Shown here piece by piece: positions 3,927 to 14,712 of a DNA stretch of 64,000 bases. The stretch comes from Candidatus Binatia bacterium (GTDB lineage Bacteria > Desulfobacterota > Binatia > Bin18): the NCBI GenBank assembly GCA_963666315.2, contig CAXXHG010000008.1, positions 64,001 to 128,000 of the forward strand. The letters run 5' to 3'. The notes under the pieces were generated by a model. The model saw nothing but the letters and a program-made list of their open reading frames with translations, searched no databases and was not told the origin of the DNA. Position 1 is the first letter of the stretch; the number at the start of each line of letters is the position of its first letter. Position numbers and translations under genes: made by a program.

Positions 3927-4499
3927 TTGCAACCGGTGTTTTCTGTGCTGAATCTTCCGAACTTTATCACCTTTTTGCGCATCGGGGCCATTCCGATCTT
4001 TCTTATTCTCTTGACGGACGAGCGATATACCGAGGCGCTCGTTGTCTTTATTTTTGCTGGTATCACTGATTCGCTTGATGGTCTGGTCGCCCGTTTGATG
4101 GACTCGCGCACGACGCTGGGTGCTTTCATTGACCCACTGGCTGACAAACTCCTGCTGATCAGCTCTTTTGTCATTCTCGCCTTCTTAGGGTTCATTCCGC
4201 GTTGGTTGACCGTGCTGGTCATCAGTCGCGATGTTATTATTTTGAGCGGCTTTATCGTCCTGTTCTTTGTCACGGGTCACTCGATTGAAGTCCGTCCCAG
4301 TTTCGTGGGGAAAGCCTGTACATTTTTTCAATTACTGACCGTAATTTTAACCCTGGTGGCGCTTCACAACGCGAACTGGACGTACCCGCTGGTGTGGCAT
4401 CTTACCCTGACTCTGGCCGGTGCCGCGACGGTCATATCGGGCTTGCAATATTTGTCTCGCGCCCTGGTGTGGTTCAACCAGCAAGAGGATGTTCCCTAA
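3927..4499 (+). CDS. CDP-alcohol phosphatidyltransferase (PgsA/cardiolipin synthase-like)
   Basis: NLPNFITFLR, DSLDGLVAR..G..IDPLADK signature, hydrophobic helices. Confidence 0.92.
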   Translation: MQPVFSVLNLPNFITFLRIGAIPIFLILLTDERYTEALVVFIFAGITDSLDGLVARLMDSRTTLGAFIDPLADKLLLISSFVILAFLGFIPRWLTVLVISRDVIILSGFIVLFFVTGHSIEVRPSFVGKACTFFQLLTVILTLVALHNANWTYPLVWHLTLTLAGAATVISGLQYLSRALVWFNQQEDVP

Positions 4500-4588
4500 C
4501 GCAGGGACGGGGACCGTTGGTTGAGTAGGCTGCGGGGGGTTGCTAAGCTGCCCGTCTGCTGCATACAACGAATGGCCCGGAGGAGGGG

Positions 4589-5362
4589 GTGAGGATTGTG
4601 ATCCAGGTATTTCCCCGTATCGACAATACCAAATTAATGGACCTGTTTCGGAAGGGAGTCGCCGGCCAGTGGTCGGCAACCGAAATTGACTGGACCCGCC
4701 CACCGACCCTCGACCGCCATGAGAAGCGGGCTTTTGCGATGGTATTGACCCCGATTTACTTAGGTGAGCAAATGGCCATGATCGGGGCCAGCACGGCCAT
4801 TCCGCAGTGCTTTGCCGCGCATGAGACTGAGGCGCAGTTGTATTTGTCGACTTTCCTCCTTGATGAGGCCCGCCATTTTGAGACACTGACCCGCTTCTAC
4901 AACACGCTCAATGAACGCCCGCTTGAAGTCCGTGAATTACGAGACATGTTCCGCTATCAAGCACGTTTGTTCAAGTCGCGCGACCGGGTCGAGTGGTTGT
5001 GGGGCATTCTGCTGAGCGATATTCTTGCCCGTCATTTTTACAGCATACTCGCAAAAGCCCATCCGGACTCTCTGTTTGCGCAAATTGCCGGGCGCATTTT
5101 ACGGGACGAAGCCCGCCATCTCGCCTTTGCCGAGCTGTATTTGCGAGCGGCATTAGAACGTGAGCCGGAGCGTGGACCCGGTTTTCTCCGGACGCGGGAT
5201 GAACTCTTACGCTTAATGGAATCAATCTATGCTGCCCTCAAATCTGAGGCTGTCCTCATAGGCATAGACGGACAGACACTGTTCAATGCCATAAATCGTG
5301 ATATCGAGAACAAAGTCAAACGGTTGCGCCTGCGCGAGGAAGAGGATTCGGCAGCGATATGA
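4589..5362 (+). CDS. Ferritin-like di-iron carboxylate protein (AurF/aldehyde-deformylase-like superfamily), function unknown
   Basis: WSATEIDW N-terminal motif and GE...DEARH...SD...DEARH, i.e. two ExxH iron-ligand motifs. GTG start follows GGAGG. Confidence 0.8.
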   Translation: MRIVIQVFPRIDNTKLMDLFRKGVAGQWSATEIDWTRPPTLDRHEKRAFAMVLTPIYLGEQMAMIGASTAIPQCFAAHETEAQLYLSTFLLDEARHFETLTRFYNTLNERPLEVRELRDMFRYQARLFKSRDRVEWLWGILLSDILARHFYSILAKAHPDSLFAQIAGRILRDEARHLAFAELYLRAALEREPERGPGFLRTRDELLRLMESIYAALKSEAVLIGIDGQTLFNAINRDIENKVKRLRLREEEDSAAI

Positions 5363-6687
5363 AGGTCGCCGCTCAGCCGGCGGACGCTGTTCCTCCGGCG
5401 GACGCCCCTCGGCCGCGTATGTCGCGCTGGCCACGCGGGAATAAACCTGAGTGGATTGCCGAACGTCAAGAAGTGCTGCGCGCTTTACCGCACTGGGATG
5501 CTGAACATCAGCACGTCTTGGATGGACCGCTCTCCGCGCTCACTCCGTTTCAGGAATGTCTCACCGGCCAGATGACGCTGCCCGTCGGGGTGGTCGGCCC
5601 TGTGGTGCTCAATTGCGGTCAATACCAGTGTGATCCGAAAGGCAAACTCCGCGAGCTAGGGCGGGAAGACCGCCAGGTCTATGTCCCCTTGGCACATACC
5701 GAGGGCGGCCTGTCGGCATCGATACAGCGTGGCGTGAAGGCCGTCGCGCTTGCCGGTGGGGTGCGAACGCAGGTGCTGGCGGATCGTATCACGCGCGGGT
5801 CTTGTTTTGTATTTTCGTCAACGCACGAAGCCGTCGTCCTGGCTGAGTGGGTGAGTGAGCATATGGAAGAAATGATTTCCTGGCTTACAGATCCGGATAA
5901 TCCGCTGCTCTCCCAACAGGTGAATAAAACCGCCGTACTGAGCCGGCATGCGGTGCTGCATGAAGTCGAGACCCACGTCATCGGACCGATGTGCCACGTC
6001 CTGTATCGGTTCACCACTGGGGACGCCTGTGGACCGAATATGATGACGCGCAACGCGTACGCGCTCAATCACGCCTATATCCTGGAGCGCTTCCCGATCG
6101 ACTCCGGCATCACGCCGCTCCGGATTTTTTTGGAAGCCAATATGGGCGGGGATAAAAAACCGAGCCATGCCTTTTTTCAGTTCTCCGGCCACGGCAAGGT
6201 TGTGCATGCTGAGGTCACCGTGCCTGATACGGTGCTGCGACGGGTGTTACGTGTGGCCGGGGTGGATATTCTGGCCTTGGAACACGCCGGACTGCACGGG
6301 GCGCATGCGAGTGGTATGCAGTCGTTCGCCTTTACCCCGGCCTCGGCTATTGCCGCCATTTTTGCTGCAACCGGACAAGATCTGGGGATGGTCGGGACGA
6401 GTAGTATGGCCCAGGTGACAGCAACCGCCGTGACGAGGGGATTGCATCTGTCCATTCGATTTGCCGGACTCGAAGTCGGCACCCTGGGCGGTGGAACCAG
6501 CCTGCCGCATGCGCGCTCGTATCTCCAACTGCTGGACTGCTGGGGTGAGGGCAAAGTCTACCGGTTTGCCCAGATCATTGCCGCGACGGCCCTGTGTCTT
6601 GAACTGTCGGCCTCGGCGAGTATGGCCACGGATGGCAGTCGTAATTTTCTGCAGGCCCATTCTGCGCGGGGCGGGTTGCGGGAATAA
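5359..6687 (+). CDS. Divergent class I-type HMG-CoA reductase-like protein
   Basis: LPVGVVGP, VPLAHTEGGL, ITRG, TGDACGPNM, GDKK, ATGQD, VGTLGGGT, LELS and C-terminal His. ATGA overlap with the upstream gene. Confidence 0.85.
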   Translation: MKVAAQPADAVPPADAPRPRMSRWPRGNKPEWIAERQEVLRALPHWDAEHQHVLDGPLSALTPFQECLTGQMTLPVGVVGPVVLNCGQYQCDPKGKLRELGREDRQVYVPLAHTEGGLSASIQRGVKAVALAGGVRTQVLADRITRGSCFVFSSTHEAVVLAEWVSEHMEEMISWLTDPDNPLLSQQVNKTAVLSRHAVLHEVETHVIGPMCHVLYRFTTGDACGPNMMTRNAYALNHAYILERFPIDSGITPLRIFLEANMGGDKKPSHAFFQFSGHGKVVHAEVTVPDTVLRRVLRVAGVDILALEHAGLHGAHASGMQSFAFTPASAIAAIFAATGQDLGMVGTSSMAQVTATAVTRGLHLSIRFAGLEVGTLGGGTSLPHARSYLQLLDCWGEGKVYRFAQIIAATALCLELSASASMATDGSRNFLQAHSARGGLRE

Positions 6688-6697
6688 CCAGACTTTT

Positions 6698-6723
6698 GTA
6701 AGGGTGGTTCACGAACCCCCTAT
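6698..6723. repeat. Degenerate GTAG-family REP-like palindrome
   Basis: GTAAGGGTGGTTCACGAACCCCCTAT. Core GGTTC..GAACC is shared with the element at 14755. Confidence 0.6.
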
Positions 6724-6740
6724 CAGGGGAATATTCTTAT

Positions 6741-7634
6741 ATGGCTACCCCTCTCATGCGTCTCATCGTGAATCCGACCGCCGGCGGCGGGAAAGGCGTT
6801 GCCATTGCACACCAAGTCAGCCGAGAGCTCAAGCAGCGCCAGCTGAAACACGAAGTCTTGTATAGTCGCGCACCGACTGAGCCCAGGCTGTTGGCGGGTC
6901 GGGCTGTAGAAGCAGGCTGCTCCCTGGTGGTCGGCATTGGGGGTGATGGCTTATTGAGTGCGGTAGCAAACGTCTTAGTTGGCACGGACACCGCCCTAGG
7001 GATTATTCCTGCCGGACGGGGCAACGACATTGCGCGCGGCCTTGGTCTTCCGCTCGGTATCCCTGCGGCGTGTCAGGTATTGGCGCAACAACAGATGCAA
7101 CGGATTGATGTCGGCCAGGCGCATGATACCTATTTCTTCTCGGTCGCCCTGATGGGTGTAGCGGCCGACATTAATCGTCGCGCGAATCGGCTGGGACGGT
7201 TCCGGATCAATGCCATCTACTCCCTGCTGACTGTTGTTTCGGTTTTTTTATCTTCTCCTCGGGCCTTTACCATCAGTTGTGATGGACGTGAGCAACGCTG
7301 CTATAGCTGGCTTATTGCCGTCGGTAACACCTGGAGTTCTGGCCGGGGGATGAAACTCGTTCCTGGGGCGAGGGTGGATGACGGTGTCTTAGATACCTGT
7401 CTGGCGCATGGCATGGGGCGGCTGGAGCTTTTGCTGCGGGTCTTTCCGCGTGTGTTCCGCGGGACGCACGTCTACCTGACCGGTATTGAGAGTTTGCGAG
7501 GCAGGGAAATGGTGATCAGTGCGGATAGCCCGTGTGATATCTATGCGGATGGTGAACGGATCGGCCCGTTACCTGTCACACTCCGAGCGATTCCGCAGGC
7601 CCTGAAGGTCATTCTCCCCGCAGACTATCATTAA
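6741..7634 (+). CDS. Diacylglycerol kinase-family lipid kinase (YegS/Rv2252/BmrU)
   Basis: IVNPTAGGG, GGDG, IPAGRGNDIAR, DDG, ADGE motifs. Confidence 0.92.
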   Translation: MATPLMRLIVNPTAGGGKGVAIAHQVSRELKQRQLKHEVLYSRAPTEPRLLAGRAVEAGCSLVVGIGGDGLLSAVANVLVGTDTALGIIPAGRGNDIARGLGLPLGIPAACQVLAQQQMQRIDVGQAHDTYFFSVALMGVAADINRRANRLGRFRINAIYSLLTVVSVFLSSPRAFTISCDGREQRCYSWLIAVGNTWSSGRGMKLVPGARVDDGVLDTCLAHGMGRLELLLRVFPRVFRGTHVYLTGIESLRGREMVISADSPCDIYADGERIGPLPVTLRAIPQALKVILPADYH

Positions 7635-7712
7635 GTATGAAAGTCGTGGGGGATATGGTACACGAGCGGCATATACACTGGTAACCGCACAAGCAGAAAA
7701 AGGGGAGATAGC

Positions 7713-8493
7713 ATGGCCTGTAAGGAAGAATTCCTTGACGTACGCGGAAAGAAAATTCAAATGCTCTCCGGCGGCTCTGGGGACCCGTTGCTCTACTTAC
7801 ACAGCGCTGGGGGGGGAAGTTGTCTGGCTGCCTTTTTTCGAACAGCTTTCCCAGCACTACACCGTCTATGTTCCGGGCCACCCGGGATTCAGCCAGTCTG
7901 AAGGGCTGGATCAAATCGATAGCATAGAAGATTTGGTCTTCCACTATACAGACCTGATGGATCAAATCGGCCTCGACCAGCCCTATGTGGTAGGTTTGTC
8001 GTTGGGCGGTTGGTTGGCGGCTGAATTGGCAACGCGATATGCGAATCGCATAAAAAAATTAGCCTTGGTCAATCCCGTGGGATTGCGCGTACCCGGGTCC
8101 CCCATGGCGGATATTTTTGCGGCAAACCCACAGGAAACCCGTCAGCTGGTTTTTCATGATCCGGACTCTGAGCTAGCCAAGACGTTTATCCCGGACGAAC
8201 CGTCTCAGGAAGTACTCGAAAATGCTCTGCGGGCGCGAGAGGCGACTGCCCGGGTAGGCTGGAATCCCTATCTATCCAATCCTAAGCTGCGGGGTCGATT
8301 GTATCGCATTACGGTTCCGACTGTGATTGTGTGGGGAGAGTCGGATCGTCTGGTCCCGGTCGAGCATAGCCGAGCGTATCATGAGGGTATTGCCGGCTCA
8401 CAGCTCATCATGCTGCCCGAGTGTGGCCATACCCCACCGTTTGAAAAGCCGCGAGAGACGGCGCAACATTTGGCAGAATTTTTTCAGGCCTGA
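7713..8493 (+). CDS. Alpha/beta hydrolase, split by a frameshift in a G8 run (7809-7816)
   Basis: ORF 7713 (..PLLYLHSAGG) joins ORF 7735 (EVVWLPF..GLSLGG..GESD..CGH) if one G is removed. RBS GGGGAG precedes 7713. Confidence 0.85.
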
Positions 8494-8582: not shown

Positions 8583-9236
8583 ATGGACAAGCTGAATCAG
8601 CCTTTTACCCGCGAGATGTTTGATCGTTTGGACGAAAACGACGATGGGCTCTTCTATACCGCCCCGCGCAAGCTGGTGCATATTGACGCAGGAGCCATTT
8701 CCGCAGCTGGCCAATGTATGGCTAAAACCTTTGCCCCAAACGGCCTCTTGCTCGACTTGATGAGTAGCTGGCGGTCACATCTGCCTGAGGGGTTTGTGAA
8801 GCAAAAATTGCTTGGACTCGGACTGAACGCTGAGGAGATGGCAGACAATCCGGACTTGGACGAGTATATTGTTCACAATCTGAATGCCTACTCCCAGCTC
8901 CCGTTTCCTGACGCCTATTTCGATGGCGTGGTCGTGACGGTTTCGATCCAATACATCATCAAACCGGTTGCAGTCTTTGCTGAGGTCAATCGGGTCTTAA
9001 AGATCGGTCGCCCTTTCCTGGTTCTGTACTCCAATCGCATGTTTCCAACCAAGGCTGTGCGCGTATGGCAAATGCTCCGCGATACAGGCCGGGCCGAGCT
9101 CATCCAGGCGTATTTCCACCAGGCTGGTGGATATGCTGAAGCCGTCTTCGAGGACTGGAGCCCCAACCCTGGAGCGTCTGACCCGCTGTTCGCTGTATCC
9201 GCGTGCAGGCGGGAGGAATCAGGCCCGACGGCTTAA
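8583..9236 (+). CDS. Class I SAM-dependent methyltransferase (type 11)
   Basis: FYTAPRKLVHID, LDLMSSWRSHLP, GLGLN, FD..TVSIQY, SNRMFPTKA family motifs. Confidence 0.85.
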   Translation: MDKLNQPFTREMFDRLDENDDGLFYTAPRKLVHIDAGAISAAGQCMAKTFAPNGLLLDLMSSWRSHLPEGFVKQKLLGLGLNAEEMADNPDLDEYIVHNLNAYSQLPFPDAYFDGVVVTVSIQYIIKPVAVFAEVNRVLKIGRPFLVLYSNRMFPTKAVRVWQMLRDTGRAELIQAYFHQAGGYAEAVFEDWSPNPGASDPLFAVSACRREESGPTA

Positions 9237-13465: not shown

Positions 13466-14310
13466 GGCGGCGCCATCCGGACTGGATTAAGGTCCGTATG
13501 CCGGGCGGTCCGGATTATAAACAGACCCATGCGATAGTTGCGGCGTTCAAGCTGCATACCGTCTGTCAGGAGGCGCAATGCCCCAATATAGGTGAATGCT
13601 GGGGGCATGGTACCGCAACGTTTATGCTGATGGGCGACGTCTGTACGCGCAATTGTCGTTTCTGTGCCGTGAGCCACGGCCGTATGGTTAAGCTGGATCC
13701 TGACGAACCACGTCGTGTAGCCGATGCAGCGCTCAAGATGGGGCTGTCTCATGTGGTGGTGACTTCAGTCAACCGAGATGATCTACCCGACGGTGGGGCG
13801 AGCCATTTTGCCGAAACCGTTCATGCGATTAAGCGGCTCCAACCAGACTGCACTATTGAAGTGTTGACACCGGATTTCCAGGGCAATGAAGACGCGGTGT
13901 CCGTCGTGGCGCAGTCGCCCATTGATGTTTTTAATCACAACACAGAGAGCGTACCGCGCTTGTATAAACGCGTCCGCCCTGGCGCAAAGTATGAGCGCTC
14001 CCTGCGCGTACTAGAAAAAGTCAAAGAAGTCCGGCCCAATTTAAAGACCAAGACGGGTCTCATGCTCGGCCTAGGGGAGACATATGCAGAGCTATTGAGT
14101 GTTTTTGGTGATCTGCGCGCAGTGGATTGCAACATCCTCACGCTTGGTCAATATCTCCAACCGTCTCAAGAGCAGTTGCCTGTTGAACGCTACGTCCATC
14201 CGGACGAATTCAAGATTTTACGTGAAGAAGCGCTCGGGCTCGGTTTCCGTCATGTCGAATCCGGCCCGCTTGTGCGCAGCTCGTATCATGCCTGGAAACA
14301 TGTGGGGTAA
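13393..14310 (+). CDS. lipA: Lipoyl synthase
   Basis: CQEAQCPNIGEC, CTRNCRFC radical-SAM motif, RSSY. ATG 13393 follows AGGAG and overlaps lipB by 73 nt. Confidence 0.97.
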   Translation: MEHELAEVSSNDVSSERATGSRPVRRRHPDWIKVRMPGGPDYKQTHAIVAAFKLHTVCQEAQCPNIGECWGHGTATFMLMGDVCTRNCRFCAVSHGRMVKLDPDEPRRVADAALKMGLSHVVVTSVNRDDLPDGGASHFAETVHAIKRLQPDCTIEVLTPDFQGNEDAVSVVAQSPIDVFNHNTESVPRLYKRVRPGAKYERSLRVLEKVKEVRPNLKTKTGLMLGLGETYAELLSVFGDLRAVDCNILTLGQYLQPSQEQLPVERYVHPDEFKILREEALGLGFRHVESGPLVRSSYHAWKHVG

Positions 14311-14326
14311 GAAAAAGGAGATCCCC

Positions 14327-14712
14327 ATGGCATTACCCAGCAAAGTCAAAATCGTTGCCCTGACAGCCAGAGACGGATTAGAGGGCATTAAGCATCTGGT
14401 TCCGGTGGATTTTCGTGTCGAGCTAGTCAATCGTCTGTCGGATGCGGGCTTGCCGTCCATTGAAGTCGGCGAGTTCGTCAGTCCCAAGATCATTCCGGCC
14501 ATGCAAGGGTCGGATCAGGTTGCTCAGCAGATCGAAGCAAAACCTGCCGTGGAATACAGCGCACTCGTGACCTCGACAAAGCCGTTGTCATTGGTAGATG
14601 GGCCACAGAGGGGATGAATCACCGCTTAGACTCTAAGATTGGTGAGGCTATGACCAAGCCCAACATGACCTATTTTGAGAAGGTCGATCACGGGGTGCGG
14701 CTCAGCGCGTAG
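14327..14712 (+). pseudogene. HMG-CoA lyase-like gene with a large internal deletion
   Basis: N-terminus (VKIV..RDGL..IEVGEFVSPKIIPAM..YSALV) is joined at ~14568 out of frame to a C-terminal-like segment DLDKAVVIGRWATEGMNHRLDSKIGEA, ending TAG at 14712. Confidence 0.75.

Follow-up and report, generated by a model that had tools for sequence, protein, structure and literature searches.

A conserved lipid module in Candidatus Binatia and other bacteria that pairs an FcrA-type reductase with a dimetal-carboxylate protein

The stretch of DNA considered here (the window) comprises 64,000 nucleotides of contig CAXXHG010000008.1 (positions 64,001 to 128,000 of the forward strand, assembly GCA_963666315.2) from a Candidatus Binatia bacterium, whose genome (G000) is 92% complete. 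It contains a gene for a ferritin-like dimetal-carboxylate protein, named F1 in the following, a gene for a reductase with the fold of class I 3-hydroxy-3-methylglutaryl-CoA (HMG-CoA) reductase (HMGR), and a gene for a soluble lipid kinase of the YegS/DAGK family (Table 1). The F1 stop and the reductase start share the sequence ATGA at 5359-5362, the kinase gene follows the reductase gene after 53 bp, and F1 contains two DEARH motifs at residues 92-96 and 173-177, all as described in an earlier note that was made from the sequence alone. These genes represent a real, conserved and uncharacterised lipid module, and its conserved core is the pair of reductase and di-iron protein, not the trio.

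The reductase has kept the catalytic apparatus of class I HMGR. Its catalytic residues E115, K266, D341 and H434, which we take to correspond to Glu559, Lys691, Asp767 and His866 in human HMGR numbering, are present in 115 of 115 aligned rows, and so is S195, a residue of the NADP(H) type, while the CoA-binding residues S121 and R124 are invariant in the reductase subclade. Also the fold matches 6HR8 and human HMGR (TM 0.75). The binding site for the HMG moiety is different, as Ser684, Lys735 and Leu862 of class I HMGR are replaced by E259, G/A311 and F430, again in 115 of 115 rows, whereas the HMGR of a Streptomyces mevalonate operon, which served as control, retains S, K and L at these positions. 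With 178.7 bits, the protein scores far below the cut-off of 441.8 for the class I HMGR model TIGR00533. Exactly these three replacements (Ser684 to Glu, the HMG-binding Lys735 to a small residue, Leu862 to a bulky one) are given in the 2025 paper by Grossi et al. as signatures of FcrA, a class I HMGR homologue that converts acyl-CoA with chains of at least C14 into the fatty alcohol in an NADPH-dependent reduction (PMC11948995). FcrA was assayed from Ca. Promineifilum breve, with Natronomonas pharaonis as a further source, and is described as inactive on HMG-CoA and on free C16:1 aldehyde (PMC11948995). Because the catalytic tetrad is kept and all three signatures occur in every aligned row, the reductase very probably works like FcrA, and it is most likely a fatty-alcohol-making enzyme. 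The earlier note had seen a divergent HMGR here, which is correct for the fold and very probably not for a role as HMG-CoA reductase; that this type of reductase has been characterised as FcrA had been missed.

The subclade also has changes of its own. In human numbers that we assume and that were mapped via the alignment, H752 is changed to T, N755 to S/T and L853 to A, and new histidines occur at H113, H278 and H313; these subclade-specific pocket changes are missing from most or all of six controls. They suggest a remodelled pocket that is polar and enlarged, i.e. not one for a plain acyl chain. The subclade is set apart by a long branch and shares only 28-31% identity with the other orphan HMGR-like proteins compared. 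In a FastTree phylogeny with one canonical HMGR and no published FcrA references it groups with orphan HMGR-like proteins that bear FcrA-type residues. Two related arrangements were encountered on plasmids. In Streptomyces (NZ_CP109493.1, locus L127, about 3996-8118) an HMGR/FcrA-like domain is fused to a kinase-like C-terminal domain, and the fusion gene adjoins a GH3-type acyl ligase gene in an unannotated cluster. In Sinorhizobium (CP140923.1, L130) an HMGR-like gene with FcrA-type residues belongs to an acyl-CoA carboxylase/MmgE operon.

The module does not serve isoprenoid synthesis. The host genome has one PF00368 gene and possesses DXR, IspG and IspH, the latter in two copies (LytB; G000:C8:11079-12119 and C9:1063-1881). 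No HMG-CoA synthase (HMGS) was found in a search of the whole genome; queries with MVK, PMK, MVD, IDI-2 and HMGS from Streptomyces gave no matches there (type I IDI was not sought), and the sole GHMP kinase is of the IspE type and adjoins prs. The lack of canonical mevalonate genes that the earlier note had seen in the window is thereby extended to the host genome. HMGS is missing in all 43 chosen carrier genomes (14 from Binatia and 29 from other phyla) and IspG is present in all 43, and the annotation “HMG-CoA reductase” is no sign of a mevalonate pathway in these genomes. For the general distribution of the mevalonate and methylerythritol phosphate pathways, PMC6107057 provides background only.

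The earlier note had also considered a non-canonical mevalonate route with the DAGK-like enzyme in place of mevalonate kinase. The breakdown of leucine could supply the HMG-CoA for such a route. Besides the catalytic tetrad, equivalents of R590, D690 and K692 are indeed retained in the reductase, and a class II HMGR, as a possible substitute, occurs in three of the four genomes that have F1 without the reductase subclade, a count that comes with no background rate. These class II genes, however, sit in separate, ordinary operons for mevalonate uptake or salvage, away from F1, and their presence is possibly a coincidence. As the carriers combine IspG with a lack of HMGS, as MVD, PMK and IDI-2 are missing in the host, and as the carboxylate-binding residues are lost just like in FcrA with its described inactivity on HMG-CoA (PMC11948995), we attach a vanishingly small probability to this route. 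The three genomes with the class II enzyme are acidophile Bacillota (L221, L222 and L223; G061, G062 and G065) without HMGS. In two of them, the class II HMGR gene lies beside a regulator, a major facilitator superfamily transporter and a lactonase-like gene, which points to mevalonate catabolism, and one of these two loci also adjoins a gene for HMG-CoA lyase. In the third it is found with MVK, MVD, PMK and IDI-2, pointing to mevalonate salvage.

The partner of the reductase, F1, reaches only sub-cut-off Pfam scores, with Ribonuc_red_sm and AurF. The di-iron, ferritin-like identity proposed in the earlier note agrees with a predicted R2/R2lox/ADO-like fold (pLDDT 90.7) and with the predicted ligands E60, E93, H96, D144, E174 and H177, which show no variation in 40 of 40 aligned homologues. 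Foldseek ranks R2lox at the top (TM about 0.75), and the structure comparison VIA put three kinds of fold practically level, with Z 24.1 for R2 (R2/R2c), 23.3 for R2lox (rmsd 3.1 over 247 residues) and 23.2 for 5ux2, a protein with ADO activity. A profile of the F1 family, which counts 30 cluster representatives at E<=1e-30 with fragments included, matches R2lox with its N-terminal half (4e-8) and cyanobacterial ADO with its C-terminal half (2.5e-7). The curated R2lox model nevertheless scores only 33.9 bits against a cut-off of 194, the positions of the R2lox cross-link Val72/Tyr162 are taken by A63 and G139, both invariant, and the fourth ligand is Asp (D144) and not the Glu of the E/E/H/E/E/H set of R2lox. 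A Leu occupies what is presumably the radical Tyr position of class Ia R2, an NrdA gene was not seen beside F1, and no ADO family model was among the Pfam/NCBIfam matches at E 0.01. F1 is a separate dimetal-carboxylate family with R2lox/ADO-like fold, and not R2lox, ADO or class Ia R2.

As to function, one source states that R2lox proteins co-purify with hydroxy fatty acids and that two of them have no ADO activity (PMC9314684), and GkR2loxI, an R2lox protein, is reported in another as an alkane hydroxylase/monooxygenase (PMC10867098). Since R2lox binds hydroxy fatty acids and alkane hydroxylation has been reported, a hydroxylation by the dimetal protein is plausible by analogy. A complex prediction with two reductase copies (residues 64-437) and F1 (5-254) returned a score of 0.00, “no answer”, and counts neither way. 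Longer F1 homologues (P0231-P0243) carry a C-terminal, CxxC-containing tail that is missing from the Binatia proteins and could be a small metal site. The host furthermore encodes a second, distant ferritin-like protein (G000:C14:63054-64127; L215:6052-7041), which is also found in G037 and other Binatia and is unlinked to the module.

When 185,579 genomes were scanned with F1 as anchor, 100 relatives were confirmed, 80 of which are listed and form the basis of the F1 locus counts given here; by our own grouping, 42 are of Binatia type and 38 are others. Reductase and F1 are adjacent in 71 of the 80, in at least seven phyla. This holds for 41 of the 42 Binatia-type loci, where the miss is a contig end, and for 30 of the 38 others, which are titled Bacillota, Chloroflexota, Actinomycetes, Armatimonadota, Terriglobales or Dormiibacterota and have the pair in four different arrangements. 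The eight misses among the latter are two contig edges, two second copies in genomes that have the pair as well, and four genomes without the reductase subclade. As the 4-nt overlap recurs across loci (34 of 41 Binatia-type loci with both genes, 4 of 30 in other phyla), it is not due to chance. Within Binatia, the reductase is found in 36/36 genomes of the host's family, in 1/1 of its sister family and in 0/23 from other orders, and the locus is thus inherited like a housekeeping gene (37/37 genomes of the host's order). The conserved synteny that the earlier note proposed to look for accordingly holds for the pair and less so for the trio, the kinase being adjacent in 49 of the 80 loci, namely 39/42 of Binatia type and 10/38 others. 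Eight records with Binatia-type gene order and 63-93% identity (L034, L035, L053, L056, L057, L061, L064 and L069) are titled Enterobacteriaceae or Klebsiella pneumoniae, and these titles are probably wrong. A membrane protein of about 470 residues without Pfam/NCBIfam match adjoins the pair in eight Sulfobacillus-type loci (L078-L092, e.g. L090:6329-7738).

Anchoring on the reductase instead, a metagenome scan kept 80 loci out of 492 confirmed. In these 80, F1 is the neighbour in 16 and a different ferritin-like family, F2, in 50; neither is found in 14, nine of which have less than 450 bases upstream, so that 66 of the 80 have one or the other. F2 displays the motifs QAD, DESRH, YERL and DDGIHH, and one of its close homologues bears the label Gaiellaceae. 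The identity between F1 and F2 is about 21%, and a 37-row tree that forces both together was rejected with a p-AU of 2e-6, where the group was chosen after seeing the trees and long branches are present. From this low identity and the rejected joint tree it appears that the need for a dimetal oxidase is met twice, by unrelated F1 and F2. Among 81 Gaiellales genomes, which are kin and not independent, so that no p-value is given, 15 have the reductase (two of the genes interrupted), and each of these holds exactly one of the two partners: F2 in 14 (eight adjacent, six unlinked) and F1 in one. Neither is found in 65 of the 66 genomes without the reductase, the exception being G158, a single unpublished genome with F2 alone. 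The di-iron partner is therefore near-obligate for the reductase.

A coupling of this kind brings to mind an analogue of the cyanobacterial AAR/ADO pair, in which the reductase would stop at or channel the aldehyde and the dimetal protein would deformylate it to a Cn-1 alkane or alkanol and formate. The profile match to ADO, the VIA score for an ADO-activity protein and the tight translational coupling of F1 and reductase point that way; the interchangeable ferritin-like partners would fit a reaction that is found across the superfamily, as judged from PDB titles, and the release of the aldehyde could be changed by the new His residues. The analogy is weakened because FcrA does not reduce free C16:1 aldehyde and in the published assays yields the alcohol (PMC11948995). 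Together with the missing ADO activity of the two R2lox proteins (PMC9314684), the lack of a match to an ADO family model, the lack of linkage between the partners in 6 of 14 genomes from Gaiellales, and an alkane product that would leave kinase and PlsC without substrate, this makes the deformylation route decidedly unlikely.

The kinase is a regular member of its family (DAGK_cat 97.6 bits and YegS_C 124.5 bits, with conserved GGDG motif), stays under every substrate-specific NCBIfam cut-off and is the single DAGK-family gene found in the host genome. Within the host's order, 36 of 37 genomes have an orthologue with 54-92% identity, as opposed to none of 23 from other orders, seven of which have only paralogues with 24-30% identity. 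The kinases neighbouring the module fall into five groups that are 27-44% identical. As two of these groups sit with non-module proteins in a FastTree phylogeny with 10 non-module Binatia kinases (no AU test), the kinase seems to have been recruited to the module repeatedly. PlsC is adjacent in 5/38 non-Binatia loci and a membrane desaturase in 3/38, and in 26 of the 80 reductase-anchored loci the gene after the reductase encodes a hot-dog thioesterase. Three further ideas were given up. A replacement of normal glycerolipid synthesis is ruled out, with PlsX and PlsY kept in 35 of 36 carriers each; a hopanoid link is rejected, as only 8 of 41 genomes have a squalene-hopene cyclase that exceeds the cut-off; and the combination of an epoxidase with an epoxide hydrolase was dropped, as the hydrolase near the module has a Ser nucleophile motif and is found in Binatia only.

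Table 1. Genes of the module and their direct neighbours, with positions in the window
Feature	Position	Strand	Basis
CDP-alcohol phosphatidyltransferase, PgsA/ClsA-like	3927..4499	+	Pfam CDP-OH_P_transf 8.5e-33; TIGR00560 106.7 bits vs cut-off 109.1
F1, ferritin-like dimetal-carboxylate protein, 257 aa	4589..5362	+	below all Pfam cut-offs; model and ligand conservation
Class I HMGR-fold FcrA-type reductase, distinct subclade, 442 aa	5359..6687	+	Pfam HMG-CoA_red 2e-76
YegS/DAGK-family soluble lipid kinase, GGDG motif, 297 aa	6741..7634	+	Pfam DAGK_cat and YegS_C above cut-offs
Ser-type alpha/beta hydrolase, GLSLGG	7713..8493	+	Pfam Abhydrolase; apparent +1 frameshift near 7809
Class I S-adenosylmethionine (SAM) methyltransferase	8583..9236	+	Pfam Methyltransf_11

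The genes around the trio are those that the earlier note had named, apart from the start and frame of the alpha/beta hydrolase gene, which begins near 7713 and is broken by an extra G in a G-run. Since contigs from two public runs do not have this extra G, the frameshift is probably an assembly error. The CDP-alcohol phosphatidyltransferase gene, 89 bp upstream of F1, is adjacent in 22/42 Binatia-type loci and in 0/38 others; as a neighbour in part of the Binatia loci, its role in the module is uncertain. The hydrolase (24/42, with a distant homologue in 1/38 others) and the methyltransferase (31/42 and 0/38) are probably mere Binatia neighbours and not core. The wider flanks contain dnaE, hflX and pgsA upstream, and rnhB and genes for pyruvate dehydrogenase and lipoate beyond the hydrolase and methyltransferase genes downstream. 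A gene for HMG-CoA lyase after lipA (14293-14617, NF004283 match) is truncated to the N-terminal ~108 residues; in related Binatia loci it is full-length at the same place (cluster in 14 loci). A scan for promoters and terminators gave a signal at chance level. Two RNA-labelled runs contain small shares only, as contigs of related strains, from which no inference on transcription or habitat is drawn.

In a catabolic direction, alkanes or alkyl chains would be hydroxylated by the dimetal protein, and the resulting alcohol would be oxidised by the HMGR-fold enzyme to acyl-CoA, which would enter beta-oxidation. This could make sense of the alkane monooxygenase reported with GkR2loxI (PMC10867098), the thioesterase beside Gaiellales reductases, and the HMG-CoA lyase gene that 14 Binatia loci have some 7 kb further downstream. 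The reductases have kept the NADP(H)-type residue throughout, however, the genes next to them are for lipid biosynthesis (PlsC, PgsA, kinase), conserved genes for a regulator, a transporter or beta-oxidation are missing, and the inheritance is housekeeping-like, so that we regard catabolism as very unlikely.

A simpler anabolic alternative is the supply of plain or desaturated fatty alcohol. Here the FcrA-type enzyme would make the alcohol, the dimetal protein would be a soluble acyl-CoA/acyl carrier protein (ACP) desaturase or another chain modifier, the kinase would produce an alkyl phosphate or salvage monoalkylglycerol, and the alcohol would end in wax esters or ether lipids. FcrA as assayed has this activity, and an ether-lipid role has been proposed for it (PMC11948995). 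The Atlas look-alikes of F1 include clusters of acyl-ACP desaturases (score 0.92), next to unnamed or AurF-like clusters. WS/DGAT is present in the host and missing in the other four of five carriers tested, and wax ester is for this reason not the shared purpose. An AGPS-type motif was not found in the host, in what is a weak test. Soluble desaturase folds rank lower in the comparison with F1 (Z 15.1 against 23-24), a separate membrane desaturase already adjoins the pair in some loci, and the remodelled polar pocket would be left unexplained. On these grounds, we think that such a supply is unlikely.

We consider it likely that the FcrA-type reductase and the dimetal oxidase together give rise to a modified fatty alcohol or lipid. 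More specifically, and only tentatively, the module may be an O2-dependent anabolic route. Its product would be a long-chain alcohol that is also hydroxylated, with a 1,2-diol as the most plausible form, and would serve as backbone of a glycerol-free phospholipid. In such a route, the dimetal protein (F1, or F2 in Gaiellales) would hydroxylate the fatty acyl chain, and the FcrA-type enzyme, going by the signatures of the assayed enzyme, would carry out the NADPH-dependent four-electron reduction of the (hydroxy)acyl-CoA to the primary alcohol. The kinase would then phosphorylate the primary hydroxyl group to a mimic of lyso-phosphatidate, PlsC would acylate the second hydroxyl group, and CdsA/PgsA-type enzymes would attach the head group. 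A diol phosphate is the simplest reading because an alcohol-forming reductase with its O2-activating partner is found several times together with a kinase for an alcohol and an acyltransferase for a second hydroxyl group. Compared with the order reduce-oxidise-phosphorylate of the earlier note, it is slightly favoured that the oxidase acts first or independently, as F1 occurs without the reductase in four genomes and the reductase without F1 in one (G037, of the sister family, 95% complete, sole such genome among those checked; F2 was not sought there). Lipids with the head group on OH-1 and an acyl group on OH-2 of a diol do exist, and in two sources, one from 2009, their pathway is called unclarified (PMC3504966, PMC2615216). 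That the module would be the first genetic route to glycerol-free alkanediol phospholipids, consisting of alpha-hydroxylase, FcrA-type reductase, DAGK-family kinase and PlsC/PgsA, built with two unrelated dimetal oxidases and widespread, is a doubtful further step. What probability the readings discussed here leave falls to some other product.

Several observations weigh against the diol route. In 20 of 30 non-Binatia loci with both core genes the kinase gene is not a neighbour, and it was not seen in Gaiellales-type loci; the conserved neighbours of the oxidase do not include an electron-donor gene; and the host has the WS/DGAT mentioned above. G037 keeps an intact reductase and kinase, but of F1 the last ~17 codons alone, a remnant (L216:9860-9910, G037:C46) that is still in ATGA overlap with the intact reductase and that reflects either a real loss or a mis-assembly. 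The retention of PlsX and PlsY differs from T. roseum, which is without plsB. The known diol producers Thermomicrobium, Nitrolancea, Roseiflexus and Thermus are not named in any of the 80 loci listed out of 100 confirmed, a PF00368 gene is missing in T. thermophilus, the reductase subclade is present in only 5 of 401 sampled Chloroflexota genomes (four candidates scored per genome), and lipid data were not found for any carrier. With so few Chloroflexota and no known diol-lipid organism named among the listed loci, the module is probably not the pathway of the Thermomicrobium-type diols.

The reductase type has been known since 2025, and its authors point out that many FcrA genes belong to pathways that do not lead to wax esters (PMC11948995). 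The subclade defines one such pathway with directly testable partners. A full-text literature search, with most subscription papers outside its reach, found no paper on a pair of an HMGR-like or FcrA protein with a ferritin-like protein, nor on such a reductase together with dimetal oxidases and a kinase; the word “ferritin” occurs 0 times in the main text of the FcrA paper (PMC11948995), the supplement of which may already include this subclade. The earlier note knew of no described system with this trio, which still applies to the pairing and no longer to the reductase. Its view of an apparently undescribed lipid module is supported by this search, and the adjacency of the pair shows that the module is conserved. 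Two uncharacterised dimetal-oxidase families, F1 and F2, gain a shared functional context that bears on R2lox-like function. If the product is a diol phospholipid, the module would provide the enzymes for a lipid class of unclarified synthesis and new lipid biomarkers for abundant uncultured lineages, and uncultured bacteria of soils, hot springs and the sea (Binatia, Gaiellales, Sulfobacillus relatives, Chloroflexota, Armatimonadota) would be unrecognised producers of diol lipids.

Compared with known systems, the module is closest to FcrA in its reductase, sharing the class I HMGR fold, the catalytic E/K/D/H, the three signature replacements and hosts without mevalonate pathway, while the subclade differs in its long branch, its extra pocket changes and the lack of an N-terminal Lad domain, and is partnered with a dimetal oxidase and a kinase, not with WS/DGAT or AGPS. 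With class I HMGR (human 1DQ9, Methanothermococcus 6HR7/6HR8, Streptomyces L129) it has the fold, the catalytic residues and the CoA/NADPH motifs in common, but the HMG pocket is lost, the score is far under the TIGR00533 cut-off and the carriers are without mevalonate genes. R2lox is the best sequence and Foldseek match of F1, with the R2-type N-terminal arm and a carboxylate/His dimetal site, from which F1 departs by the Asp at ligand 4 and by Gly139/Ala63 in place of the Tyr-Val cross-link pair. The cyanobacterial AAR+ADO system likewise couples an acyl-thioester reductase to a ferritin-like di-iron oxygenase, which the C-terminal half of F1 resembles; here, however, the reductase is of the alcohol-forming type and unrelated to AAR, the partners are a kinase and PlsC, and F1 has no ADO family match. 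The diol lipids of Thermomicrobium, Nitrolancea, Roseiflexus and Thermus have the architecture that the gene set would build, and as their producers were not found among the carriers, the module would represent at most a convergent route to it.

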